A DNA stretch of 64,000 nucleotides from Thermoanaerobaculia bacterium (GCA_036390755.1 DASWBH010000389.1:7269-71268), one strand, 5' to 3'; shown: positions 12,711-25,638, counted from the stretch's first letter. Notes: a model not told the origin generated them from the letters alone. Made by a program: numbers and translations.

Positions 12711-14861
12711 CTAACCGTGTGGTTTCTGATCCGGCTTCCCTTGCGGATTCTCCGGCGCCTTTGCCTCTTCGTCGACGCGCTTGCCGGTCGAAGTGTCGAA
12801 TACGGCATTGCGCAGGAACGATTCGGTCGTCCACGGCGCCCCTCCACCACCCACGTACTTGTGGAACCACTCCAGATGCGCCGTGTAGTACAGCGCCATC
12901 TCGTACCAGTTCGGCCAGTGTCCCGACTCGGAGAAGACGATCAGGCGCGACGGCACGCCCATCTTCTGCAGCGACGTGAACATCTGCAGCCCCTGCGTGT
13001 ATGGAACGCGGAAGTCGAGCTCGCCCGTCAGCACCATGCACGGCGTCTTGAAGTTCTGTACGTAATTCGACGGCGACCACTTCTGGTACAGCTCCGAATT
13101 CCAGGGCTGTCCCTTCAGGTCCCACTCCGGAAACCACAGCTCCTCGGTCGCGCCATAGAACGACCGCAGATCGAAGAGGCCCATCATCGACGCGATCGCC
13201 TTGAATCGCGTGGTGTGTCCTTCGAACCAGTTCATCATGTAGCCGCCGTACGACCATCCCATCGCGGCCATCCGGTCGCGATCGACATACGGAAGCTTCT
13301 CCAGAGCGTCGGTGACGAGCATGAGGTCGTCGAACGGCTTCCCGCCCCAGTCGCCGGAGATCTCGGCCGTGAACTCCTGGCCGAAGCCGGTCGAGCCGTG
13401 CGGATTCGGGAACGCGACTACGTAACCGGCGCCCGGATAGACCTGCCAGTCGCCGCGGAACGAATCGGCCCATAGCGACTGCGGTCCGCCGTGCACGTTC
13501 AGAATCAACGGGTACTTCCTGTTCGGATCGAAGTCGTGCGGCTTGACGATGAAGACCTGGATCCGCGCGCCGTCCGTTCCGGTCACCCACATCACCTCGG
13601 CGGGCCGGATGTCGACTTCGTTCACGATCGCGTCGTTCAGATGCGAGATGCGGCTGCGCGCCGGCGTCGTCGTGAAATCGGAGCGGTAGACCTCGCTCGG
13701 CTCGCCGACCGAGCGGCCGATGTAGTAGATCGTTCGGCCGCCGCCGGCGATCCGGAATGCGTCGACGGTGCGATCGGAGAACACGCGCGTGCTCGTGCCG
13801 GTCGCGACGTCGACCCTGAAGAATGGATTGATGCCTTCGACCGCTCCGGTGAAGTAGATCGTTCGCGAGTCGTCGCTCCAGTCGAAGTCGTCGATCCAGT
13901 TGTTGAAGCCGGGCGTGACGATGCGCGACGTGCCCGCGCGCCGGTCGTACACGGCCAGCTGAAAGAGGCTCGACTCGTATCCGGGATCGCGCTGCCGCCG
14001 GTAGGCGATGTAGCGCCCGTCCGGCGAGTATTTCGGACTGCCGTCGAATGCCTTGTTGTCGGCCGTGATATCGCGCGGGGTGCCGGGATTGGTTACCGAG
14101 ATCAGATACAGATCGTTGTTGGTCGACGCCGCCGGGACCGGATCGGGATTTCCCGCGACCGCCAGCTCGGATCCATCAGGTGAAAAGTCGTATTGCAGAG
14201 GTCCTCCGAGCTGGAACGGCGGGAAGTCTTTCGATCCGGGAGTGAGATCGCGCGTCCTGCCGCTGTCGACTTCGACGATCCAGGTGTGCGTCACGGTCCC
14301 GTCTTTCCATGACTTCCAGTGACGATAGAGGAGCTGATCGGCTGTGTGCGCCTTCAGCTTCCCGTTGTTCCAGCGATCGGCAACGCGCTTGTTGCACGCG
14401 TCGTCGCCGTTGCACTCCGGATAGACGTCGGTCGAGAACGCGATCCGCTTTCCGTCGGGCGACCAGACCGGATCGGAGACACCGGTCGAGATGTTCGTCA
14501 GCTCGCGCGGCTCGCCGCCGCCGAGGGGCAGCAGATACAGATTTCCGAGGCCGTCCTTCGTGCGGACGAACGAGAGATACCGGTTGTCGGGCGAAAAGCC
14601 GGGCGATGAATCGAGATCGCCCGACGTGACCTGATGCGGATCGCTGCCGTCGGCTCCGGCCATCCAGATGCGCGTCGTGCGTTTGCCGTGCGGCAGATCG
14701 GTCGTGGCGACGGTGAACGCGACGCGGCGCTCGTCGTGCGAAAGCGCGAGCTCGGTCACTGAGCGGAGGCGGTAGAGGTCCTCGATCGTGAACGCGCGTT
14801 TCTGCGCGAACAGCGGCAGCGCGACGAGGAGAAGGGCGGCAGACAGAGCGAGTTTTCTCAT
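12711..14861 (-). CDS. S9 family serine peptidase (prolyl oligopeptidase / acylaminoacyl-peptidase type) with N-terminal beta-propeller; secreted
   Basis: Signal peptide MRKLALSAALLLVALPLFAQ. TolB/WD40-like propeller repeats (SPDG.., SPDGK..). C-terminal alpha/beta hydrolase with GWSYGGY (catalytic Ser) and ESGHW. Confidence 0.85.
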   Translation of the reverse strand: MRKLALSAALLLVALPLFAQKRAFTIEDLYRLRSVTELALSHDERRVAFTVATTDLPHGKRTTRIWMAGADGSDPHQVTSGDLDSSPGFSPDNRYLSFVRTKDGLGNLYLLPLGGGEPRELTNISTGVSDPVWSPDGKRIAFSTDVYPECNGDDACNKRVADRWNNGKLKAHTADQLLYRHWKSWKDGTVTHTWIVEVDSGRTRDLTPGSKDFPPFQLGGPLQYDFSPDGSELAVAGNPDPVPAASTNNDLYLISVTNPGTPRDITADNKAFDGSPKYSPDGRYIAYRRQRDPGYESSLFQLAVYDRRAGTSRIVTPGFNNWIDDFDWSDDSRTIYFTGAVEGINPFFRVDVATGTSTRVFSDRTVDAFRIAGGGRTIYYIGRSVGEPSEVYRSDFTTTPARSRISHLNDAIVNEVDIRPAEVMWVTGTDGARIQVFIVKPHDFDPNRKYPLILNVHGGPQSLWADSFRGDWQVYPGAGYVVAFPNPHGSTGFGQEFTAEISGDWGGKPFDDLMLVTDALEKLPYVDRDRMAAMGWSYGGYMMNWFEGHTTRFKAIASMMGLFDLRSFYGATEELWFPEWDLKGQPWNSELYQKWSPSNYVQNFKTPCMVLTGELDFRVPYTQGLQMFTSLQKMGVPSRLIVFSESGHWPNWYEMALYYTAHLEWFHKYVGGGGAPWTTESFLRNAVFDTSTGKRVDEEAKAPENPQGKPDQKPHG

Positions 14862-16027: not shown

Positions 16028-16453
16028 TCACTGCTCGTGGATCGTGTAGTCGATCTTCACCGACCCGCTCGCGTCGATTCTCCCCTGGACCTTCACGGTC
16101 GACTTCTGCTTCATCACGCCGATGGCCAGACCCTCGCCTTCGAGCAGGAAGTCGTTGCTGTTGCGTCTGAGCGTGCCGGTCATCGTTCCCTGGAAGTCGT
16201 TCGCGTTCACCGTCGCGTTGTTGCGGACGACGATCTGGAACGCGGCGAGCTCGGCGCCATTTTCCGCGAGCGCCTGCGCCACGACGTGAGCGCGGAACCG
16301 CTGCGCTTCCCCCAGCGCGCGCGACGAATCCATCAGCAGCAGCTCCATCAGCGCGAAGTAGAGCATCGCGAGAACGAGCGCTGTGATGAGCACGTAACCG
16401 CGCTCGCGGCGGTCAGTCGTGGGCGCGCGGCTGAAGATATTGATCGATCGCAA
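16028..16453 (-). CDS. Pseudopilin-like protein with N-terminal hydrophobic segment (third gene of a prepilin-type cluster)
   Basis: ..RERG|YVLITALVLAMLYFALMELLL.. resembles a GspK/minor-pilin N-terminus without Glu5. The start is uncertain: TTG at 16453, or GTG at 16393. Confidence 0.4.
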   Translation of the reverse strand: MRSINIFSRAPTTDRRERGYVLITALVLAMLYFALMELLLMDSSRALGEAQRFRAHVVAQALAENGAELAAFQIVVRNNATVNANDFQGTMTGTLRRNSNDFLLEGEGLAIGVMKQKSTVKVQGRIDASGSVKIDYTIHEQ

Positions 16454-16931
16454 GTTTTCCGTTGCCGTCCTTCGCTGTGAAGCGAACACCGAAAGGATGC
16501 CCCGGCGTCTCCACCGCATCGATGTTCGCGGCGAAGTCGGGAGGCAATCCGCGCGCGACCCACTCGGTCGCGACGCCCACGTTGTACGAGATTCGATGCA
16601 CTTCGCGCGGCGTGTTGAAATCCCACACCACCGTCTGCACGCCATTGCTGACGATCGTGTCGATGATCAGCGTCTTCGGCGATTGCGTGTACTTCCCGTT
16701 CCCGGCATTGTCGCGATAAGGGTTGCTGCCGAATGCGTCGAGCACATCGCGACGCATGCGCGACAGCACCGCGATCACCTGCGGGTGCTGCATGAAATTC
16801 ACGGGATACCTCCGCTCCTGCCTGCGCATCTCCAGCGACAGGACGCCGAGGATCATGAGGAACGTGCCGAAAATGGCGAGGGTGACGACGAGCTCCAGCA
16901 GTGTGAACCCGCGGCTTCGCCTTCTCACCAC
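16413..16931 (-). CDS. Prepilin-type N-terminal cleavage/methylation domain protein (type IV minor pilin / T2SS pseudopilin)
   Basis: A GTG start preceded by a GGAGGA SD. The leader MVRRRSRG|FTLLELVVTLAIFGTFLMILG has Phe1 and Glu5. Confidence 0.65.
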   Translation of the reverse strand: MVRRRSRGFTLLELVVTLAIFGTFLMILGVLSLEMRRQERRYPVNFMQHPQVIAVLSRMRRDVLDAFGSNPYRDNAGNGKYTQSPKTLIIDTIVSNGVQTVVWDFNTPREVHRISYNVGVATEWVARGLPPDFAANIDAVETPGHPFGVRFTAKDGNGKLAIDQYLQPRAHD

Positions 16932-17308
16932 AGGTTTCCTCCGCCGGTGTCGACGCGCATGATCGCGAGCTTCGCCTGCTTCTTGCCGTTGCGCCACTTG
17001 ATCATCATCGTGACCGTCTTCACGCCGGGACTCGTCGCGGTCACGTCGATGCTCGTGCTGTAGGGCTGCAGCGGCCGCAGCAGATCCGTCGACGTCGTGA
17101 ACGATCCCATCGGCAGGACGTCGGCGAACGGCACGCGCCGCTGCAACTCCACCTCGTTCGCCAACACCTGATACGCGAGAATCAGCTCCGAGGCCTGCTG
17201 CAGGCGGCGGTTGCGCTCGATGAAGACAGCCAGCGTGGTCGTGATGACGAGCGTGAGAATCAGCAGAGCAAACAACAGCTCGACGAGGGAAAAACCGCGC
17301 TGGCGCAT
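16925..17308 (-). CDS. Prepilin-type N-terminal cleavage/methylation domain protein (pseudopilin, GspG/I-like size)
   Basis: MRQRG|FSLVELLFALLILTLVITTTLAVF is a classic class III signal with Glu5. The stop overlaps the start of the next pseudopilin (GTGGTGA). Confidence 0.7.
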   Translation of the reverse strand: MRQRGFSLVELLFALLILTLVITTTLAVFIERNRRLQQASELILAYQVLANEVELQRRVPFADVLPMGSFTTSTDLLRPLQPYSTSIDVTATSPGVKTVTMMIKWRNGKKQAKLAIMRVDTGGGNLW

Positions 17309-17383
17309 GGGACCGTCTTCGATTGTACGCAATCGACCGCCCCGGCCACTGTTCAGCAGTCACTTTGTTAGACTGCGCGGCCG

Positions 17384-18793
17384 ATGAAGCTCCGCTTCGC
17401 CCCTTCGCCGACCGGCTTACTGCACGTCGGCGGCGCCCGCACGGCGATCTTCAATCTGCTGCACGCGCGGCGATATGGCGGCAACATGCTGCTGCGCATC
17501 GAAGACACGGACGTCGAGCGCTCGCGGCAGCATCACGCCGAGCAGATCGTCAGCTCGCTGCGGTGGCTCGGCATCGACTGGGACGAAGGTCCGGTCTACC
17601 AGAGCGATCGGCTGGCGCGATACCGCGAGCGCGCCGAAGAGCTCGTGCAGACGCGCAAGGCCTACCGCTGCTACTGCACGATCGAAGAGCTCGAGGCCGA
17701 GCGCGTCGCTGCGGAAAAAGCCGGCAAGGCGTATCGATACTCCGGGAAGTGCCGCGCGATCGCCGAAGCGGGCGAGGCGCCGCGCGAGATCCCGCACGTG
17801 ATCCGGTACAAAGTCGGCCACGGCTCGATCGATTTTCACGATCTCATTCGCGGCGACGTCCACTTCGACGCCGATCTGATCGACGACTTCGTGCTGCTTC
17901 GCTCGGATGAGAATCCCACGTACCACCTGTCGGTCGTGGTCGACGACATCGATATGGAGATCACGCACGTCGCGCGCGGCGACGACCACCTGTCGAACAC
18001 GCCGAAGCACATCCTGTTGTTCCGCGCGTTCGGCGCCGAGCCGCCTGCGTTCGCGCACCTCCCGCTGATCCTCGGACCCGACCGCAAGCGTCTCAGCAAG
18101 CGCACCGGCGCGACCTCGGCCGAGGAGTATCGGGAGATGGGGATTCTGCCGGCGGCGCTGTTCAACTTTCTCCTGCTCCTCGGCTGGGCGCCCGGCGACA
18201 ACCGCGAGATCCTCAGCCGCGACGAAGCGGCGGCGATGTTCGATCTGTCCGACGTCAATAAAGCGCCGGCGGTCTTCGATCAGGAGAAGCTGCTCTGGAT
18301 GAACGGACAGTACATGATGCGGACGAGCACCGAGGATCTTTATCTGTATGTCGCGCCGTTCCTCGGCTTCGATGCGCCGCCGCTGGAGAGCGTGCGCAAC
18401 GTGCTCGAGTTGAACAAGACGAGAGCGCGGACGTTGAAGGATCTCGCCGCGCTGATGAAACCGTATCTCGCGACCGATGACGCGGTGACGTACGACGAAG
18501 AGGCTGTGAAGAAGCACCTCAAGGGCGAGGATCTCGCGAGCAGGCTCGCGGAGTTGCGCGACGCGCTCTCGCGCACCGAGCCGTTCGACGTCACGACCAG
18601 CGAGCAGGCGCTGCGCGCGCTCGCGGAGTCGCGCGGCATCAGCGCCGGCAAATACATCCATCCGCTTCGCGTCGCCCTTCTCGGCGTCGCGGCATCGCCG
18701 CCGATTTTCGATGTCGCGGTCACGCTGGGAAAGGAGCGCTCGCTGCGCCGCCTTCAGCGCCTGATCGACCGTCTGCCGGAGCTGGCCGCCTGA
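17384..18793 (+). CDS. gltX: Glutamate--tRNA ligase
   Basis: MKLRFAPSPTGLLHVGGARTAIFN.. (HVGG variant of HIGH). A KLSKR-type motif (RLSKRTG) is present. Full length is 469 aa. Confidence 0.95.
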   Translation: MKLRFAPSPTGLLHVGGARTAIFNLLHARRYGGNMLLRIEDTDVERSRQHHAEQIVSSLRWLGIDWDEGPVYQSDRLARYRERAEELVQTRKAYRCYCTIEELEAERVAAEKAGKAYRYSGKCRAIAEAGEAPREIPHVIRYKVGHGSIDFHDLIRGDVHFDADLIDDFVLLRSDENPTYHLSVVVDDIDMEITHVARGDDHLSNTPKHILLFRAFGAEPPAFAHLPLILGPDRKRLSKRTGATSAEEYREMGILPAALFNFLLLLGWAPGDNREILSRDEAAAMFDLSDVNKAPAVFDQEKLLWMNGQYMMRTSTEDLYLYVAPFLGFDAPPLESVRNVLELNKTRARTLKDLAALMKPYLATDDAVTYDEEAVKKHLKGEDLASRLAELRDALSRTEPFDVTTSEQALRALAESRGISAGKYIHPLRVALLGVAASPPIFDVAVTLGKERSLRRLQRLIDRLPELAA

Positions 18794-19193
18794 TCAGGTG
18801 GACGACGTAGACGATCACGAACAGTGCTGACGTGATCCAGTGCGCGGCGGCCATCGTTTTGCGCGTTGCGTCGTTCGTCGAGATCTGCAGCAGATATGCG
18901 GACAGCGTCATCGGCGCGAGCGCCGCGAGCGACCAGATTCCGCTCGCTCGATTGCGCGGCTCGCCGAACGCGAGCTTGGGCCTGACGTGATTTGCAAACA
19001 CCCATCCGAAGCCGAAGACGAGAAGCGGCGCGACGACCACGTGCGTCGACAGCATGTAGGGCTGCAGCGGGTGGTTGACGACCGAGAACTCGTCGACCGG
19101 TTTCATGAAGTACTTCATCACGGCGAAAACAATGCCGGTAAGCGCCGTCAGCGCGACGCAAAGGTGCAGGTAGACGACCTGCACGCGCGTCAT
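18720..19193 (-). CDS. Four-TM His-rich membrane protein (possible b-type cytochrome-like electron-transfer subunit)
   Basis: Four predicted TM helices with conserved His residues in and near the helices. It overlaps the FMN-binding gene upstream by 4 nt. Its 3' end overlaps gltX by about 74 nt (convergent). Confidence 0.5.
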   Translation of the reverse strand: MTRVQVVYLHLCVALTALTGIVFAVMKYFMKPVDEFSVVNHPLQPYMLSTHVVVAPLLVFGFGWVFANHVRPKLAFGEPRNRASGIWSLAALAPMTLSAYLLQISTNDATRKTMAAAHWITSALFVIVYVVHLIRRPAPADGRSGAEGGAASAPFPA

Positions 19194-19732
19194 TGCGGCG
19201 CCGCTCCTCCGATGACGTGGTGCAGCGCGAGGACCTTGCGCGACGCGTTGACGATCGCCTGACCGCTGAGGCTCGCGCCGGACAGCGGCCTGATCGCGCC
19301 ATTCAGGGCGAGATCTTTGTCGAGCTTGCGGCCGTTGAGCTGATCGATCCAGCGTCGCTTCGGGAGGTAATCGGTCGGCTCGTCGAACGAGAGGATCTCG
19401 ATGCGGTCGACGCGTCCGTCGGGCGTCACGACGATCATGACGCTCTCAGGAAGCGTGCGCACGCGATGCGCGTCGAAGTACGCGTACCCGGTGACCTTGT
19501 CGCCGGCCGTGGCGACGTAGCGGATCACGAGCTGGTCATCGAACGCGATGCCGCTCTCCCGGCGCGCGTCCTCGGCCTGCTGTTTCGTCAGAAACACCGT
19601 CTGCCGCGTCACCTTCGCACCGGGGAACGCGAACGCGAGCGCCTGCTGCTGCGTCATGAAGACGCGTGCGTCCGCCGATGCCGCGAACAGCAGGACGGCG
19701 ATCAGAAGATGTAGCCGACGCCGATGTTCCAC
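19190..19732 (-). CDS. Secreted FMN-binding domain protein (predicted ApbE flavinylation target)
   Basis: Signal peptide MEHRRRLHLLIAVLLFAASADA. The FMN_bind-like motif ..IRPLSGASLSGQAIVNASRKVL matches the (D/S)GA(S/T) flavinylation site. Confidence 0.65.
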   Translation of the reverse strand: MEHRRRLHLLIAVLLFAASADARVFMTQQQALAFAFPGAKVTRQTVFLTKQQAEDARRESGIAFDDQLVIRYVATAGDKVTGYAYFDAHRVRTLPESVMIVVTPDGRVDRIEILSFDEPTDYLPKRRWIDQLNGRKLDKDLALNGAIRPLSGASLSGQAIVNASRKVLALHHVIGGAAPQ

Positions 19733-20943
19733 TGCTTCGCTCCCGTGCGCGCTTTGTTCGTTACATTCTCGTGATCTATTTTTATAACCGTTTGTGAGAT
19801 TGGTTTAATAGCCACACCGACCGTGAAGATATTCTGTGCATTCGCAAGGTTGCGCGAGAAGCCTGCCGGCACGCTACGCTGCGTATCCAGCTGCTCGTAT
19901 CGCGCATACGGCGTCAGCGACCAGCTCTTCGAGATCAGCGCGGCGAGGTCGTAGCCCGCTTCGCCGTACCAGCCGCCGAAGCTCTTGCCGATCGACGCGT
20001 CACCCTCAAGGCCGTTCACCGCGTTGATCTGTGCGGCGTCGCCGATCGTCCCTCTCGCGTACAGCCCGCGCAGCGACAGTCCGCGGAACTTCGAGTCGAA
20101 GTGCGCTTCGCCGAGGGTCACGCGGCCGGCGAAATTCTGCGTCTGGCCCGAGTTGCCCGAGTAGAGCGACGCGCCGACGAGCGTCCCCTCGATCGGATGC
20201 CAGTCCGCCCTCCCGACCACCGCCCAATCCTCGGCCAGCGCTTCGCCGCCGGCCTGCCGTCCCTCGCGAATGCCTTCCTCGCTGCCGAAATGCGCGGAGT
20301 TGAGTCCCGTGACGAGGTACGCCCGGTACGTGACGTTCTTCACGTCGCCGAAGACGCCGGCGCCGATCTCGCCCCACGTCGCCGGAATGATGACCTGCTC
20401 GACCTGCGGCCGCCGCGCGCCGAGGTATGCGGTGGGCTCGTGCTGCTCGTTGATCAGGCCGACCGGAAGCAGCATCACGCCGGCGCGATAGTTCAGCCAC
20501 GGCTTCTGCAGGAAATCGAGGTAGGCAAACTCGAGCGACACGGTGCCGCCGCTTTCGGTCGACGCGTGCTCGACCTCGAGCTCGGAGTTGAAGAGAACGC
20601 GATCGTTGAACTTGTAGCCGGTGTAAAGCACACCGCGCAGCAGGTCGGCGCGATCGGGCTCCGAGCGGTCGTGGTTCTCGTACAGCATTTCGCCGTAGCC
20701 GCCGAACGACGCACCCTGCTGCGCGCGATAGACCTTCGACGCTGCCGCGCCCAGGCCGTACTGCTGCGTGTCGGCGGCCACACTCTTCTCCGCCTGCGGC
20801 GCTTTCAGCGCCTCGATTTCCTGTGTGAGGATGTCGATCTGCCGCTGCAGCTCCTTGAGCTTCTGATCGGTTGCTGCGTCCTGCGCGACGAGCGATGTCG
20901 CGAGACACAGTGAGATCACGATGATTCCGATTTGCTTGAGCAT
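19702..20943 (-). CDS. Outer-membrane beta-barrel (porin-like) protein with N-terminal coiled coil
   Basis: Signal peptide, a coiled-coil segment (KLKELQRQIDILTQEIEALK), alternating amphipathic beta-strands, and a C-terminal aromatic ..NIGVGYIF. Confidence 0.6.
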   Translation of the reverse strand: MLKQIGIIVISLCLATSLVAQDAATDQKLKELQRQIDILTQEIEALKAPQAEKSVAADTQQYGLGAAASKVYRAQQGASFGGYGEMLYENHDRSEPDRADLLRGVLYTGYKFNDRVLFNSELEVEHASTESGGTVSLEFAYLDFLQKPWLNYRAGVMLLPVGLINEQHEPTAYLGARRPQVEQVIIPATWGEIGAGVFGDVKNVTYRAYLVTGLNSAHFGSEEGIREGRQAGGEALAEDWAVVGRADWHPIEGTLVGASLYSGNSGQTQNFAGRVTLGEAHFDSKFRGLSLRGLYARGTIGDAAQINAVNGLEGDASIGKSFGGWYGEAGYDLAALISKSWSLTPYARYEQLDTQRSVPAGFSRNLANAQNIFTVGVAIKPISQTVIKIDHENVTNKARTGAKQWNIGVGYIF

Positions 20944-20946
20944 GGT

Positions 20947-21810
20947 TCAGTCCTTCGGAAAGTCGTTGGATCGGACAATCTGGTGCGAGCTCGTGATGAA
21001 CAGCGCGGCGACGCCGTGAGCGTTCGCCCATCGCAGCCCTTCATCCGGCCCCATCACATACAACGCAGTGGAGAGCACGTCGGCGGTCAGTGCGTCGCGC
21101 GCGATGACCGACACGGAGCCGCGCGGCGGCAGCGCCTCTCCGGTGCGCGGATCGATGATGTGCGTGAAGCGGCGGCCGTTCACGACGAACGACTTCTCGG
21201 AGCCGGAGCTCGTCGAAAGCGAGGCGTCGCGCAAAGTGACGTTCACCGTCGCGACGTCGCGCTGCTCCGGATCGGCAATTGCGACGCGGTAATCGCCGCG
21301 AACGGCAATCTGTCCGCCGAAGTTGATCATCGCTCGCGGCGCGTCGACGACCGAGAGCATCCGATCGAGCGCGTAGCCCTTGCCGAAACCGCCCTCTTCG
21401 AACGCAGCACGACCGGAGCGGATCGACGCGAGCGCGCCCTCGATTGCATCGTGCGACGGCAGCGCGCCGTCAGCGCGAGTGCGCCACGCGTCGATGAGCG
21501 GCCGCACCTGCGGCTCGAACGCGCCGCCGGTTCGCTCACGCCACGCGATGACGGAGTCGAGCAACCCGCGCAATTCCGGCGAAGCAGCTTGGCCGCGGTT
21601 CACGCGCACGAGCTCGCTATCGTCGCGCCACGTGCTCAGCATCCGCTCGATGCGGGCCGCTTCTGCAAACGCAGCGTCGATCTGCTTCGCGTCGCCGTCG
21701 ACAGCAATTTCGCACACCGTTCCCATCAGGTACCGCGCCCTGGCGATTTCTGCTGACGCTGCAGTGATGGGAACGAGTGTGAGCGCGATGAGTGCCGTTG
21801 CGGCTCTCAT
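20947..21810 (-). CDS. apbE: FAD:protein FMN transferase (ApbE family)
   Basis: Signal peptide MRAATALIALTLVPITAASA. ApbE-like core (..RYLMGTVCEIAV.., ..GGFGKGYALD.., ..FGGQIAV..). 4-nt overlap with the FTR1 gene upstream. Confidence 0.8.
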   Translation of the reverse strand: MRAATALIALTLVPITAASAEIARARYLMGTVCEIAVDGDAKQIDAAFAEAARIERMLSTWRDDSELVRVNRGQAASPELRGLLDSVIAWRERTGGAFEPQVRPLIDAWRTRADGALPSHDAIEGALASIRSGRAAFEEGGFGKGYALDRMLSVVDAPRAMINFGGQIAVRGDYRVAIADPEQRDVATVNVTLRDASLSTSSGSEKSFVVNGRRFTHIIDPRTGEALPPRGSVSVIARDALTADVLSTALYVMGPDEGLRWANAHGVAALFITSSHQIVRSNDFPKD

Positions 21811-22574
21811 CGCGCTCCTAACGCCGCGCGGTTGTGTGCGCGTGCGCGATCGAGAATCGACGCCGCCGCAAGCCACGCCGCGCAGACGCCGACCATCGCC
21901 ACCGAGAACCAACGGCCGTACACGCCGACCGGAGAGTAGGGCTCCGTCGCCACATGAATCGCTTCGCTATGCGGCAGCAGCCCCGCCTCGGAGAATTCGT
22001 GGATCGAGTAGAAGACGATCTGGATGGTGAACAACAGGAGAAACAGTCCGGTCACCTGGAAGAACCGCTTGATGTTCACGCGATGGCCGAAGTGCGCCCA
22101 CAGCCACGACATCGTCGCGGCGGCCGCGATGCCGAGCGCGCAGCCGAGCCAGAAGCCGGCCTGGCGCACCTGAATCAGCATCAACGCCGCCTCCATGCCT
22201 TCGCGGGTGACCATCAGAACCGTGAATCCGAAGACGGCCGCGGTGGCGATGAGCGGCGACTCATGAGCCGAGTGTTGATCGAGCCGCGCTTCCATCTGCC
22301 GCTTCATGCGCGGCGCGGTGCGCCAGACGTGAATCACGAACGACGCGACGAGGATCGCCGCGACGAGTCCGAGGACGCCTTCCCACATCGGCTGGTTGAC
22401 GCTCTGCAGCACGTATCCGAGAGCGAAGCTTGCGACGACGGATACGGCGATGCCCCAATAAACAGCGGGCCGCAGCCAGTCGCGTCCGGTCTTGCGGAGG
22501 TACGCGAAGATGATCGCGACGGTGAGGAAGGCCTCGAAGCCTTCGCGGAAAACGATGATCAGGGCGTTGAGCAT
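21807..22574 (-). CDS. High-affinity iron permease, FTR1/EfeU family
   Basis: Two REXXE motifs (REGFEAFL and REGMEAAL) in a polytopic membrane protein. Confidence 0.85.
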   Translation of the reverse strand: MLNALIIVFREGFEAFLTVAIIFAYLRKTGRDWLRPAVYWGIAVSVVASFALGYVLQSVNQPMWEGVLGLVAAILVASFVIHVWRTAPRMKRQMEARLDQHSAHESPLIATAAVFGFTVLMVTREGMEAALMLIQVRQAGFWLGCALGIAAAATMSWLWAHFGHRVNIKRFFQVTGLFLLLFTIQIVFYSIHEFSEAGLLPHSEAIHVATEPYSPVGVYGRWFSVAMVGVCAAWLAAASILDRARAHNRAALGAR

Positions 22575-22585
22575 GGGTCCTCGGG

Positions 22586-23092
22586 TTACTTCCTCAATTG
22601 CATCGCGCCGGCCTGGATCATCTTCACGCGGTCGGGTGCGTCGGGAGTTTCGCCTTTGCGTTTGCACGCGTCGCACACGCCGAGGATCTGCAGGTTGTGA
22701 AAGGTCGGCGTGAAACGCTTTCTCGCGCAGATCTCGTGCTGGCGCTTTTCGAGCTCCGGGTCGTTGAACTCGATGACCGAGCCGCAGGTCGTGCAGATCA
22801 GATGGTCGTGGTGCGAGTTTCCGGTGACGTGCTCGTAGTGGTAGTGGTCCTCGCCGAGGTGGACGCGGCGGACCATTCCGGATTTCACGAGCAGCTCGAG
22901 CGTGCGATAGACGGTGGCGCGCGAGATCTTGAGGCCCTTCTCCTTCATCTTGAAGAGGAGCTCGTCGGCCTCGAAGTGGTAGTGGGTGGAGAAGATCTCG
23001 CGGACGAGGGCGGAGCGCTCGCCGGTGAGCTTCAGGTTCTGCTGCTGGAGGAATCCGGCGAAGCGATCAATTTCCTTCTGGACGTGAGGCAT
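22586..23092 (-). CDS. fur: Ferric uptake regulator (Fur family)
   Basis: ..ISRATVYRTLELLVKSGMV..HHDHLICTTCGSVIEF..CDAC.. covers the Fur DNA-binding and metal-site motifs. It sits 11 nt upstream of the FTR1 gene. Confidence 0.88.
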   Translation of the reverse strand: MPHVQKEIDRFAGFLQQQNLKLTGERSALVREIFSTHYHFEADELLFKMKEKGLKISRATVYRTLELLVKSGMVRRVHLGEDHYHYEHVTGNSHHDHLICTTCGSVIEFNDPELEKRQHEICARKRFTPTFHNLQILGVCDACKRKGETPDAPDRVKMIQAGAMQLRK

Positions 23093-23107
23093 GGCGTCGT
23101 TGCATCT

Positions 23108-23125
23108 TGAGACTGAGTCTCAGTA
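23108..23125. promoter_or_regulatory. Overlapping inverted repeats about 20-35 nt upstream of the fur start; candidate autoregulatory operator
   Basis: The 13-bp palindrome ACTGAGtCTCAGT overlaps GAGAC-N3-GTCTC, in the arrangement TGAGAC TGAGTC TCAGTA. It lies in the fur 5' region. Confidence 0.3.
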
Positions 23126-23223
23126 GCAAGTGGGATTTTATGACCGCGGCGCGGGAGCGTCAAGTGACGCCGCTCACCGGCTCGTGTGCGGAGCCCTCCA
23201 CCCTCCGCCCTCCGCGCTCCGTC

Positions 23224-25638
23224 TTACAGCCGCGTCCGTGCCGCGTCCGCCGCCGCCCGGATCTGCGGCTGCCGCGGATCGATCGTCAGCGACCGGTTCC
23301 AGAAGTCCAGCGCCCGGCCGTAGTCATTCTTCTTCGCGTAGAAGATGCCCAGGTTGTTCAGCGCGAGGGTGGACGACGGTTGCAGTCCGAGCGCCCGCTC
23401 GAGCTCCGGCAGCCCTTCGGTGTAGCGATCCGCCTGCGACAGCGCGGAGCCGAGGTTCGCCGCGATCAGATAGGACTGCGGGAAGATCTCCTTCCCTTTC
23501 TCCAGAAGCGCGATCGCTCGCGAGGTCATGTTCCGCTGCCGGTAGAGCGCCGCGAAATCGCAGAACCATTGATCGCCGTTCGGCAGCCCGCGCTTGATCG
23601 CTTCGAGGAAGACTTCGTCCGCCGCCGTGTACTGCTGGCGGTCGAACAGCGTCATCGCGAGGTTGAGATACGGCGTCGGTCGCGACGGATTCAGATCGAT
23701 CGCCTTCTGGAACGCGTCTGCGGCGTCTTTGAACTTGTTCTGCTTCCGCAGCTCGACACCGAGATTGTTGTCATACGCGTACGAGCCCCACTGCTGCGGC
23801 GGAATGGGGGCCGCCGCCGCTGCCGGCTGAACATCCTGGTCTTCGAACCGGGCCTGCATTCCGATGTTCGGATCCATCAGATGCCCGATCGCCTGCAGGT
23901 CGCGCTGATACACCTTCGCGTTCGTGCGCGCCGTTGTGCTCACGGGCCGCTCGCCGAAAAACTCGCTGTAGCTGACGACGCGCACCGACAGCACGGGCGT
24001 GATGTCCTTGAACGCCCAGGACGCGACTTTGCCCGACATCTCGCCCGATTGCGGAAGGCCGAGGATCGCGAGAACGGTGGGAGTGATGTCGTACAGAGAG
24101 ATCGCATGCGGAGCGCGTGACGGCAGAACGTGGTTGCCGTACGCGATGAACACGCCGGGATTGCGGTGATCGGAGAGCGCGGCGCGGCCGTTCGGAGGTG
24201 AATGCGGACGGTCCGTGCCCCAGCGGAAGCCGTACGCGGAAACGATCATCACGGTCGTGTCCTCCGGCAGGACCTGCATCCACTCGCCGATCATCCGGTC
24301 GACCTCGGCGTAGTAGTTCGAGACCGTCGGCCAGTACTTGCGGTAGCCGTCCTGACTCACTCCATCGCGCATCGGCGGGTGATACGGCGCGAACAGGTGA
24401 TTGACCGCGTCGGTGCCGTCGTACGTCAACGCGAGGAACAGCGGCGCCTGTTCGCGATACAGATTCAGCGCGGCGCGATGGTCGCTCCACGTTTTCGCGA
24501 GCACGTCGCGGAAGATCGCCACGGGATCGGCCGGGTTCTGCATGGCCGCCTCGAACTCGCCGGGCGCGAGGTTGATGAACCGCCGCACTTGATCTGCGCC
24601 GACCGTCGAGGGCGGCACTTCGACGCTCCTGACACGCTCTACGTCGCTGCCGGGATAGATCGCGTTGTCGAGGAACTCCACGGGTGCATCGAAGACCGCC
24701 GTCGATGACGGTGCCGGCGGCCAGGCGGTCCACCAGTTCACGACAACGGCGTGACGGCCGAAGCCTTCGGCGATGTCCCACAGGGCAGGCGTGCGGCGCG
24801 AATACGAGTCGACCGGCGCTCGTGTCGAGCGATCGAAGAAATCGATGACGCCATGGCGGTCGGGAGTCACTCCCGTCGCAAGCGTCGTCCAGACCAGCGG
24901 CGACACCGTCGGCTGAATCGTCTGCAGCGAGCCGGTCGTTCCGCCTTTCGCCAGCGCCTGGATGTTCGGAATGCGGCCGTCGTCGGACAGCTCCTGGATC
25001 AGGTCCCAGTCGGCGCCGTCGATCGCGAAGATCGCCACGCGGCCGGCGACCCCGCGCGCGCTGCGGCGCAGCTCGGACCGCTTGTACTTGAGCAGCGCTT
25101 CGCGGTCGGGCTCGAGGCGCGCGATTTCGAACGCGGTGACATTCAGGCCGCTTTGCGCGAGATGCGCCGCGACGATGCGCTTCAGCGGATCGCGGCGCGT
25201 CGAGAATTGCGACGTCGGCGAGAGCAGATCCTCGATCGGCACCTGCGCCGTCACCGCCGAAACCGCCTCGGACACTCGCGCGCGGATCCACGCGCTCCAG
25301 CCGTCGTTGACGAGACGTCGCGCGTCGGCGAGTCGTTCGCCGGCGATCCCGAACCGCAGCCGGTACGTCATCGTCACCGGCACCCCCTCTTTCGAGGTGA
25401 TCCGGATGACGCCGTCGCGCTGCGCGGCGCCCTCGCGCTTCTCGAACGACAAGCGGTAATAGCGGTGCGGCGGCAGGAACGTGACGTGACTTCCGACCGT
25501 GCGGACGCTGCCGTCGCTCTTGTCGACGCCGAAGATCAGACGCCGCGACGACGGCAGGAAGAGGCTGATCAGCACGTAGACCGTGACCGCCATGCAGGCC
25601 AGCCAGAACAGCGAGCGGAGGAAACGCGAGCGGACCAC
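23224..25638 (-). CDS. Membrane-anchored alkaline-phosphatase-superfamily (type I phosphodiesterase/nucleotide pyrophosphatase-like) protein with C-terminal TPR repeats
   Basis: N-terminal TM (LFWLACMAVTVYVLISLFL). AlkP-core motifs (VAIFAIDGADWD, ..TYDGTDAVNH.., ..SAYGF..). The last 200 aa carry TPR-like repeats (..NLAMTLFDRQQYTAADEVF.. and ..NLGIFYAKKNDYGRALDFW..). Confidence 0.65.
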   Translation of the reverse strand: MVRSRFLRSLFWLACMAVTVYVLISLFLPSSRRLIFGVDKSDGSVRTVGSHVTFLPPHRYYRLSFEKREGAAQRDGVIRITSKEGVPVTMTYRLRFGIAGERLADARRLVNDGWSAWIRARVSEAVSAVTAQVPIEDLLSPTSQFSTRRDPLKRIVAAHLAQSGLNVTAFEIARLEPDREALLKYKRSELRRSARGVAGRVAIFAIDGADWDLIQELSDDGRIPNIQALAKGGTTGSLQTIQPTVSPLVWTTLATGVTPDRHGVIDFFDRSTRAPVDSYSRRTPALWDIAEGFGRHAVVVNWWTAWPPAPSSTAVFDAPVEFLDNAIYPGSDVERVRSVEVPPSTVGADQVRRFINLAPGEFEAAMQNPADPVAIFRDVLAKTWSDHRAALNLYREQAPLFLALTYDGTDAVNHLFAPYHPPMRDGVSQDGYRKYWPTVSNYYAEVDRMIGEWMQVLPEDTTVMIVSAYGFRWGTDRPHSPPNGRAALSDHRNPGVFIAYGNHVLPSRAPHAISLYDITPTVLAILGLPQSGEMSGKVASWAFKDITPVLSVRVVSYSEFFGERPVSTTARTNAKVYQRDLQAIGHLMDPNIGMQARFEDQDVQPAAAAAPIPPQQWGSYAYDNNLGVELRKQNKFKDAADAFQKAIDLNPSRPTPYLNLAMTLFDRQQYTAADEVFLEAIKRGLPNGDQWFCDFAALYRQRNMTSRAIALLEKGKEIFPQSYLIAANLGSALSQADRYTEGLPELERALGLQPSSTLALNNLGIFYAKKNDYGRALDFWNRSLTIDPRQPQIRAAADAARTRL

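Follow-up and report, generated by a model that had tools for sequence, protein, structure and literature searches.

A Fur-family-headed FTR1 operon of Thermoanaerobaculia with a putative haem-flavin relay and its own porin

Gene clusters that pair an FTR1 iron permease with a protein binding flavin mononucleotide (FMN) have been published as the Ftr1-P19 or FetMP-FetABCDEF system (PMC6083913, PMC8238504, PMC5449479). Liu et al. (2018) described the Ftr1-P19 system in 33 species of six phyla; its seventh gene encodes a thioredoxin in Proteobacteria, whereas Actinobacteria, Firmicutes, Spirochaetes and Synergistetes have an FMN-binding protein in this place, and no outer-membrane component is encoded (PMC6083913). 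The product of the seventh gene was proposed to supply reducing power in the periplasm (PMC6083913, PMC8238504), and Meheust et al. (2021) counted an FMN-binding gene in 260 clusters with P19 (PMC8238504). B. breve depends on bfeUO-sifABCDE, whose SifE is the FMN-binding protein, and on an unlinked apbE when iron is chelated, and its apbE mutant is sensitive to an iron chelator (Lanigan et al., 2017; PMC5449479). Both fetA-D and fetEF matter under iron limitation (Richardson-Sanchez et al., 2023), and it is unsettled why FTR1 systems (EfeUOB, FtrABCD, FetMP-FetABCDEF) need a redox partner and in which direction the electrons flow (PMC10783030). Here we analysed a 64,000-nucleotide stretch of DNA from a Thermoanaerobaculia bacterium (GCA_036390755.1 DASWBH010000389.1:7269-71268; hereafter the window) and describe an operon of six genes on its minus strand at 18720-23092. 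The operon is probably a streamlined Acidobacterial derivative of the published system, in which FTR1 iron uptake under the control of a Fur-family regulator would be served by a quinol-haem-flavin relay in the periplasm, likely one that reduces Fe(III). The iron-linked flavin relay as such is well supported.

Reading of the open reading frames gave the order fur, FTR1, apbE, porin, FMN_bind and a gene for a protein with four transmembrane helices (4-TM). From 5' to 3', fur and FTR1 are 11 nucleotides (nt) apart, and FTR1 overlaps apbE by 4 nt; 3 nt separate apbE from the porin gene, which overlaps the FMN_bind gene by 31 nt, and the latter shares 4 nt with the 4-TM gene. All six co-directional genes thus lie where the initial annotation had placed them, on the minus strand and with overlaps or gaps of up to 11 nt. 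The flanks are unrelated housekeeping genes: a phosphodiesterase/TPR gene lies upstream, and at the other end the convergent gltX shares 74 nt (18720-18793) with the 3' end of the 4-TM gene. Within 18500-23400 a single promoter-like site was seen, upstream of fur (23135-23163, minus strand); it resembles the sigma-70 type, with TTGACG and TAAAAT separated by 17 nt as -35 and -10 boxes, and agrees with the consensus at 10 of 12 positions. Because the junctions are tight, the neighbours unrelated and the promoter-like site single, we regard the six genes as a bounded unit.

The second gene (21807-22574, minus strand) encodes a short, EfeU-like FTR1 permease of 255 residues, which scored 100.6 bits with Pfam PF03239 (gathering score 25.3; E 1.3e-28). 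The NCBIfam EfeU model was matched at 7.4e-37, with a score of 127 against an equivalog cut-off of 255, and since this cut-off was missed the protein is a member of the family and not an EfeU ortholog. Permeases of the family have seven transmembrane helices and two REXXE motifs, which are here REGFE at residues 10-14 and REGME at 124-128. In an alignment of 79 homologues R10, E11, G12 and E14, as well as R124, E125, G126 and E128, were at least 95% conserved, so the earlier assignment as an FTR1/EfeU permease with two such motifs stands. The next gene (20947-21810, minus strand) encodes ApbE, the transferase that moves FMN from flavin adenine dinucleotide (FAD) to proteins, with 188.2 bits for PF02424 against a gathering score of 25.6 (E 2.6e-55); its conservation was assessed over 75 homologues at the same level of at least 95%. 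Sec-type signal peptides were read at the N-termini of ApbE, the porin and the FMN_bind protein; that of ApbE ends in AASA|E with no lipobox cysteine. Four database entries of 656-674 residues (P0255, P0256, P0259 and P0335) unite ApbE and the porin in one product; they may be run-through gene calls across the 3-nt junction rather than true fusions.

The predicted substrate of ApbE is an exported, RnfG/NqrC-like FMN_bind protein (19190-19732, minus strand) with a single domain and one FMN site. In the alignment we could see a conserved A-x-A|R signal-peptidase site. Its family comprises 675 homologues, of which the named ones belong to Thermoanaerobaculia and many are annotated with PF04205. 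When the family profile was compared with the PDB, RnfG (9eri_G) was matched at E 0.01, and S154 of the window protein was aligned to the last Thr of TGST, which we take to be the flavinylation site of RnfG. In the window the motif reads SGAS (RPLSGASLS); among 88 homologues SGAS or TGAT was found, with AGAT in three, so that residue 154 is Ser or Thr in every variant listed, and G152, A153 and L155 are at least 95% conserved. The flavinylation-site-like motif noticed in the initial annotation therefore keeps its hydroxyl residue on alignment, and it agrees with the published ApbE target motif [S/T]GA[S/T] (PMC8238504). We predict that S154 is the flavinylation site.

The last gene (18720-19193, minus strand) encodes the 4-TM protein. 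None of its 452 close homologues is annotated or has a Pfam domain, and in a 50%-identity library the family counts 930 representatives. The protein contains six His residues, four of which are invariant: across 106 diverse members, with a mean column identity of 28%, only G20, H51, H69, H118 and H132 did not vary, and the same four His were again invariant when 150 members were aligned with hmmalign, in which H41 was 98% conserved. H51 and H69 are situated in the second transmembrane helix, H118 and H132 in the fourth. According to the positive-inside rule the N-terminus, loop 2 and the C-terminus are cytoplasmic, and in this topology H51 and H118 lie close to the periplasm, H69 and H132 close to the cytoplasm. 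These two pairs would be suited to ligating two haems across the membrane. The C-terminal tail, which is overlapped by gltX, is poorly conserved and was modelled with low confidence.

Of the ten long members of the 4-TM family, eight are fused to ApbE through a fifth hydrophobic helix. These proteins, of about 475-530 residues (P0375, P0376, P0383, P0391, P0417, P0418, P0457 and P0471), contain a complete ApbE domain. The fifth helix agrees with the topology, since one extra helix is needed to bring ApbE to the periplasm, and the fusions tie the 4-TM family to flavinylation independently of gene order. A further protein, P0468, has the 4-TM domain followed by a signal peptide and an outer-membrane barrel of Phenol_MetA_deg type, which may be a gene-call fusion. 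The commonest weak Pfam matches of the family were DUF4405 and Ni_hydr_CYTB; the window protein scored 18 bits with DUF4405 against a threshold of 26.7 (E 0.0043), and Ni_hydr_CYTB was matched weakly by 10 of 40 members, at best with 6e-5. The relation to DUF4405 or cytochrome b that the initial annotation had guessed is thus reflected in these matches and in the four invariant His, although no family threshold was reached. In a 2024 preprint DUF4405, a membrane protein linked to flavinylation and carrying four His at its centre, was shown to bind haem b (PMC10979944). The analogy makes a small electron carrier with two b-haems the most likely role of the 4-TM protein. PDB matches of the family to the His-x13-His helices of CP43 had E values above 0.1 and were discarded as noise.

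The 413-residue product of the fourth gene (19702-20943, minus strand) did not match any Pfam or NCBIfam family. Its structure model is a 16-strand barrel resembling OprP and DcaP, with the constriction loop and C-terminal aromatic residue of trimeric porins, which agrees with the outer-membrane porin-like barrel of the initial annotation. The signal peptide is followed by a coiled-coil helix of about 25 residues, and the chain ends in GYIF; a sequence search of the PDB returned only coiled-coil proteins, matched through the N-terminal helix, and these were rejected as relatives. The identity to OprP, OprO and DcaP is about 12%, and Porin_O_P of Pfam was not matched. Unlike the arginine or lysine ladder of those porins, the conserved part of the lumen appears mainly acidic, with about 11 conserved acidic against 5 basic residues in a crude estimate made from strand alternation without model coordinates; the same estimate gave a ladder of N119, E121, E123 and E125 and a conserved NEQHEP loop. 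This hints at a cation-selective pore. A further difference from OprP, OprO and DcaP is that the porin gene overlaps that of the flavoprotein, and the 31-nt overlap suggests translational coupling.

The operon is headed by a gene (22586-23092, minus strand) for a Fur-family metalloregulator of 168 residues (Pfam FUR, 1.1e-32), in which H95-D96-H97 and two CxxC pairs are at least 95% conserved. In NCBIfam the regulator matched Fur models best, though none at its equivalog cut-off, and PerR came next. Between the -10 box and the start codon of fur we found a perfect palindrome, TGAGACT-N-AGTCTCA (23108-23122), which has the 7-1-7 layout of Fur-family boxes. With TGATAAT-N-ATTATCA, which we presume to be the Fur box of B. 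subtilis, it has TGA, A5 and T7 in common. Of 64 related loci, which include both operon types described below, 61 have its core, TGAGA-N5-TCTCA, in the 200 nt that precede fur, and the remaining 837,720 nt of these loci do not contain it at all; in the 64-kb window it occurred once. Further copies were looked for in the window, and the matches at 23114 and 30301 (3 mismatches) were at the level of chance. Related loci also have similar TTGAC-type -35 boxes upstream of fur. A search for Fur boxes at this place, advised in the initial annotation, thus yielded a conserved candidate site; we infer that it is the operator through which the operon's own Fur-family regulator would act on its own gene, and the operon is probably iron-regulated.

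To find related loci, species-representative genomes were scanned with the FMN_bind alignment; 129 genomes matched and 80 loci were kept, almost all of them from metagenome-assembled genomes (MAGs) of Thermoanaerobaculia or other Acidobacteriota. The loci were compared by tblastn of the six window proteins and divided by the identity of the FMN_bind protein into close (at least 58%) and distant (42-52%) relatives. In 27 of the 34 close loci all six genes were colinear, six were cut by contig ends, and one lacked FTR1. Such colinearity is far beyond chance, and the conserved synteny on which the proposal of a functional unit depended was confirmed. So far the operon is confined to Acidobacteriota.

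In the distant relatives apbE, porin, FMN_bind and 4-TM genes were kept together, and fur and FTR1 were not found directly upstream of them. Resolving these operons by Pfam on three loci (L036, L033 and L071) and by a metagenome scan with 10-kb flanks, we obtained the order fur, FTR1, an FtrD-like/DUF2318 gene (PF10080), FtsX/MacB_PCD, FtsX and an ABC ATPase gene, followed by the cassette of apbE, porin, FMN_bind and 4-TM; about 90 nt lie between FTR1 and the next gene. About 14 long loci have the cassette and about 16 lack it. Downstream, a locus with the cassette (L033) and one without it (L155) agree in gene content, both having a second, convergent apbE (L033:6963-8006 and L155:13115-14089, both on the minus strand), a TetR gene and tyrS; the cassette is therefore a clean indel of four genes. 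It occurs in two operon layouts, both with FTR1 and both with fur immediately before FTR1, and is in this way tied to FTR1.

Some further features of the related loci were noted. The ABC ATPase of the distant operons, which is FetD-like, is fused at its C-terminus to a metal-binding/dimerisation domain of DtxR/IdeR type (Fe_dep_repr_C, 1.4e-09) in L036 (2252-3262), in L033, L037, L039 and in others, which suggests that the transporter ATPase senses metal directly. Both operon types, the minimal one with six genes (L011) and the long FetA-D operon with the cassette (L043), were found in the same MAG, JBIOUG01, so paralogous systems are able to coexist. In the cassette-less L130 a gene on the minus strand (13305-14735) converges on the ABC gene and encodes a 476-residue protein with cupredoxin (Copper-bind), Calx-beta and fn3 domains; it may serve instead as a redox partner based on copper, in the manner of FtrB or EfeO. 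In L036 (7741-9651), L043, L072 and L073 the cassette is followed by genes for a DUF6689 protein and an FHA+GAF protein.

Like the Ftr1-P19/Fet systems of C. jejuni (cj1658-65), Y. pestis and E. coli (FetMP) and B. breve (bfeUO-sifABCDE), the window operon joins an FTR1 permease to an accessory periplasmic redox protein. A canonical example (L160), with the order FTR1, P19, FtrD-like, FtsX, FtsX, ABC and FMN_bind, was recovered in our scan. The FMN_bind protein of the window belongs to another subfamily than the canonical lipoprotein type, and BLAST detected no similarity between it and the FMN_bind lipoprotein of L160. No P19 (PF10634) was found in the window or the Acidobacterial loci by tblastn with the P19 of L160, the sensitivity being that of one distant query. 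FetA (DUF2318/FtrD-like) and the FtsX-FtsX-ABC genes (FetBCD) are absent from the window operon; in the distant relatives this block is present in the published order, without P19. The window operon differs further by its short permease, by apbE inside the operon and fur at its head, and by the added porin and 4-TM protein. The initial annotation had considered the pairing of FTR1 with a flavinylated protein undescribed, and this was overstated, as both FTR1/FMN-binding pairs and flavinylation-linked cytochromes with four His (PMC10979944) have been published; the architecture itself is new. As far as the literature searched goes, the loss of P19, the loss of FetA-D in the window, the cis-encoded ApbE, the dedicated porin, the 4-TM family with its four His and the leading fur are new features.

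The operon also follows the logic of flavinylation-linked iron reductases, in which a di-haem membrane protein with four His (MsrQ-like, PepSY-like or DUF4405) passes electrons to an ApbE-flavinylated periplasmic protein (FMN_bind or DUF2271) encoded beside an iron transporter, often VIT1; some of these systems are Fur-regulated (PMC8238504, PMC10979944). DUF4405-type proteins are described as having six transmembrane helices, whereas the window protein has four in about 140 residues and remains below all Pfam thresholds; the transporter is FTR1 instead of VIT1, and a porin is included. With EfeUOB and FtrABCD, where FtrD is the proposed membrane electron carrier, the operon shares a permease with REXXE motifs that is coupled to periplasmic redox chemistry. 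EfeO, EfeB, P19, cupredoxin and polyferredoxin are all missing from it, and where those systems use copper, haem peroxidase or Fe-S centres it has flavin and putative haem b. The likeness to flavin-based extracellular electron transfer (FLEET) of Gram-positive bacteria (FmnB/PplA/EetAB/Ndh2/DmkAB), drawn in the initial annotation, turned out to be loose. In both, an exported FMN_bind protein that is a target of ApbE-type flavinylation serves electron transfer outside the cytosol; the acceptors of FLEET include Fe(III). The differences are the diderm host, the single FMN site in place of the two-domain PplA, and the assimilatory context given by Fur and FTR1; no EetA/EetB, Ndh2 or Dmk genes, which provide the membrane and quinone steps of FLEET, were seen among the six operon genes or the scanned neighbours, the rest of the 64-kb window not having been searched.

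From these data we propose the following scheme, which retains the functional logic seen in the initial annotation: ApbE with an exported FMN_bind substrate, a His-ligand membrane conduit, an outer-membrane channel, FTR1 and a Fur-family regulator. When iron is plentiful, the Fur-family protein would bind TGAGACT-N-AGTCTCA at the promoter and repress the operon. On derepression the OprP/DcaP-like porin, presumably a trimer to judge by its modelled fold, would let iron species into the periplasm, where ApbE would attach FMN covalently to S154 of the FMN_bind protein, as its family and motif suggest. The 4-TM protein may hold two b-haems and connect the quinol pool to the flavoprotein; this role is assigned because its His pattern is invariant, because members of the family are fused to ApbE and because DUF4405 provides a published precedent. 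The flavoprotein would then change the redox state of periplasmic iron, most likely from Fe(III) or an Fe(III)-chelate to Fe(II), and the short FTR1 permease would import the iron by means of its two REGxE motifs. Least certain in this scheme is the direction in which the electrons move.

Several points weigh against this interpretation. FTR1 systems are classically coupled to the oxidation of Fe(II). In the 4-TM protein the two His of the second helix are 18 residues apart, and in di-haem b proteins the usual spacing is 13-14. Neither a narrow nor a broad profile of the 4-TM family gave a significant sequence match in the PDB, and the fold search was non-specific, with no specific cytochrome match. 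The FMN_bind protein itself reached 20.8 bits with PF04205, slightly below the gathering score of 22; the domain named in the initial annotation is suggested by the annotated homologues and the RnfG match. In the close relative without the permease (L012:143-1570) fur is followed directly by apbE, porin, FMN_bind and 4-TM genes, with no FTR1 between or upstream on the 3.7-kb contig. The regulator could be PerR-like or another member of the Fur family. Finally, the thioredoxins FetE/F of C. jejuni were more oxidase-like (PMC10783030), and the net acidic lumen of the porin, crudely estimated as it is, looks suited to Fe2+.

The last two points lead to a scheme with the same parts and the opposite flow, in which Fe(II) would enter through the acidic porin and be oxidised at or near FTR1, the electrons passing to the flavoprotein, the di-haem 4-TM protein and the quinone pool. 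Such a path would resemble Fet3-Ftr1, EfeUOB and the proposed transfer from FtrB to FtrD, and in the characterised FTR1 systems the permease does work with a partner that oxidises Fe(II); the cupredoxin gene adjoining the cassette-less L130 would fit as well. The midpoint potential of covalent FMN is low, however, so that electron transfer from Fe(II) to FMN would run uphill unless Fe(III) were bound very tightly. The oxidase-like behaviour of FetE/F was observed in extracts (PMC10783030), the acidic ladder of the porin lumen was derived without model coordinates, and the literature on flavinylated systems favours iron reduction (PMC8238504, PMC6083913). We therefore consider the reverse flow rather unlikely, and reduction of Fe(III) the preferred direction.

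It is less likely still that the 4-TM protein is not a cytochrome and assists ApbE, either by exporting FAD to the periplasm or as an anchor, while the flavoprotein receives its electrons from components encoded elsewhere. The direct fusion of most long family members to ApbE would suit such a helper, as would the lack of a specific cytochrome match in the fold and sequence searches; periplasmic ApbE also requires a source of FAD, and dedicated flavin exporters of FLEET are known (cited in PMC10979944). A helper of this kind would not account for four His lying in pairs near both membrane faces on two helices and invariant in 106 members, a pattern that equals the one described for the PepSY-like, MsrQ-like and DUF4405 cytochromes (PMC10979944). 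The core of four helices and 135 residues is small for an exporter of a nucleotide cofactor, and the commonest weak Pfam matches are cytochrome b families. Very improbable, in our view, is a respiratory conduit for dissimilatory Fe(III) reduction at the cell exterior, of porin-cytochrome or FLEET-like type, with FTR1 as a secondary neighbour. It is suggested by the FLEET analogy and by the 31-nt overlap of the outer-membrane barrel gene with that of the redox protein, whereas the barrel has a porin fold, the context is that of Fur and FTR1, and FLEET and multihaem genes are missing from the operon and its immediate neighbours.

In the surroundings of the operon, an Rfam scan of 17000-25000 at E values up to 1 returned nothing relevant and no FMN riboswitch. 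Adjoining gltX, at 16028-17363 on the minus strand, there is a run of small genes, at least one with the methylation motif of prepilin N-termini (N_methyl, 2.6e-07); the run resembles the pseudopilin genes of type II secretion or type IV pilus systems.

The preferred reading, an iron uptake operon with a haem-flavin relay, reduces the question of the FTR1 redox partner to a permease and a relay of three parts, ApbE, the flavoprotein and the 4-TM protein with its four His. The linked porin gene moreover offers a candidate for the outer-membrane route that published models leave unidentified. More tentatively, and with somewhat less than even confidence, we suggest that the 4-TM family is a new minimal class of di-haem cytochromes that charge ApbE-flavinylated proteins, and that together with a cation-selective porin of OprP fold it permits reductive iron uptake from the outer membrane to the cytoplasm through a bare FTR1, independently of TonB and P19. 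If this is true, the operon would be the smallest natural FTR1 system, a redox relay and a permease would be sufficient for transport, and the outer-membrane component missing from the Fet/P19 models would be identified. The operon offers a compact candidate for reconstituting the redox step of FTR1 transport, and an unannotated membrane family with four His joins the electron carriers associated with flavinylation. Thermoanaerobaculia are an abundant, uncultured lineage of soils whose iron acquisition has, to our knowledge, been little studied, and the palindrome upstream of fur provides a candidate Fur-family operator for them.

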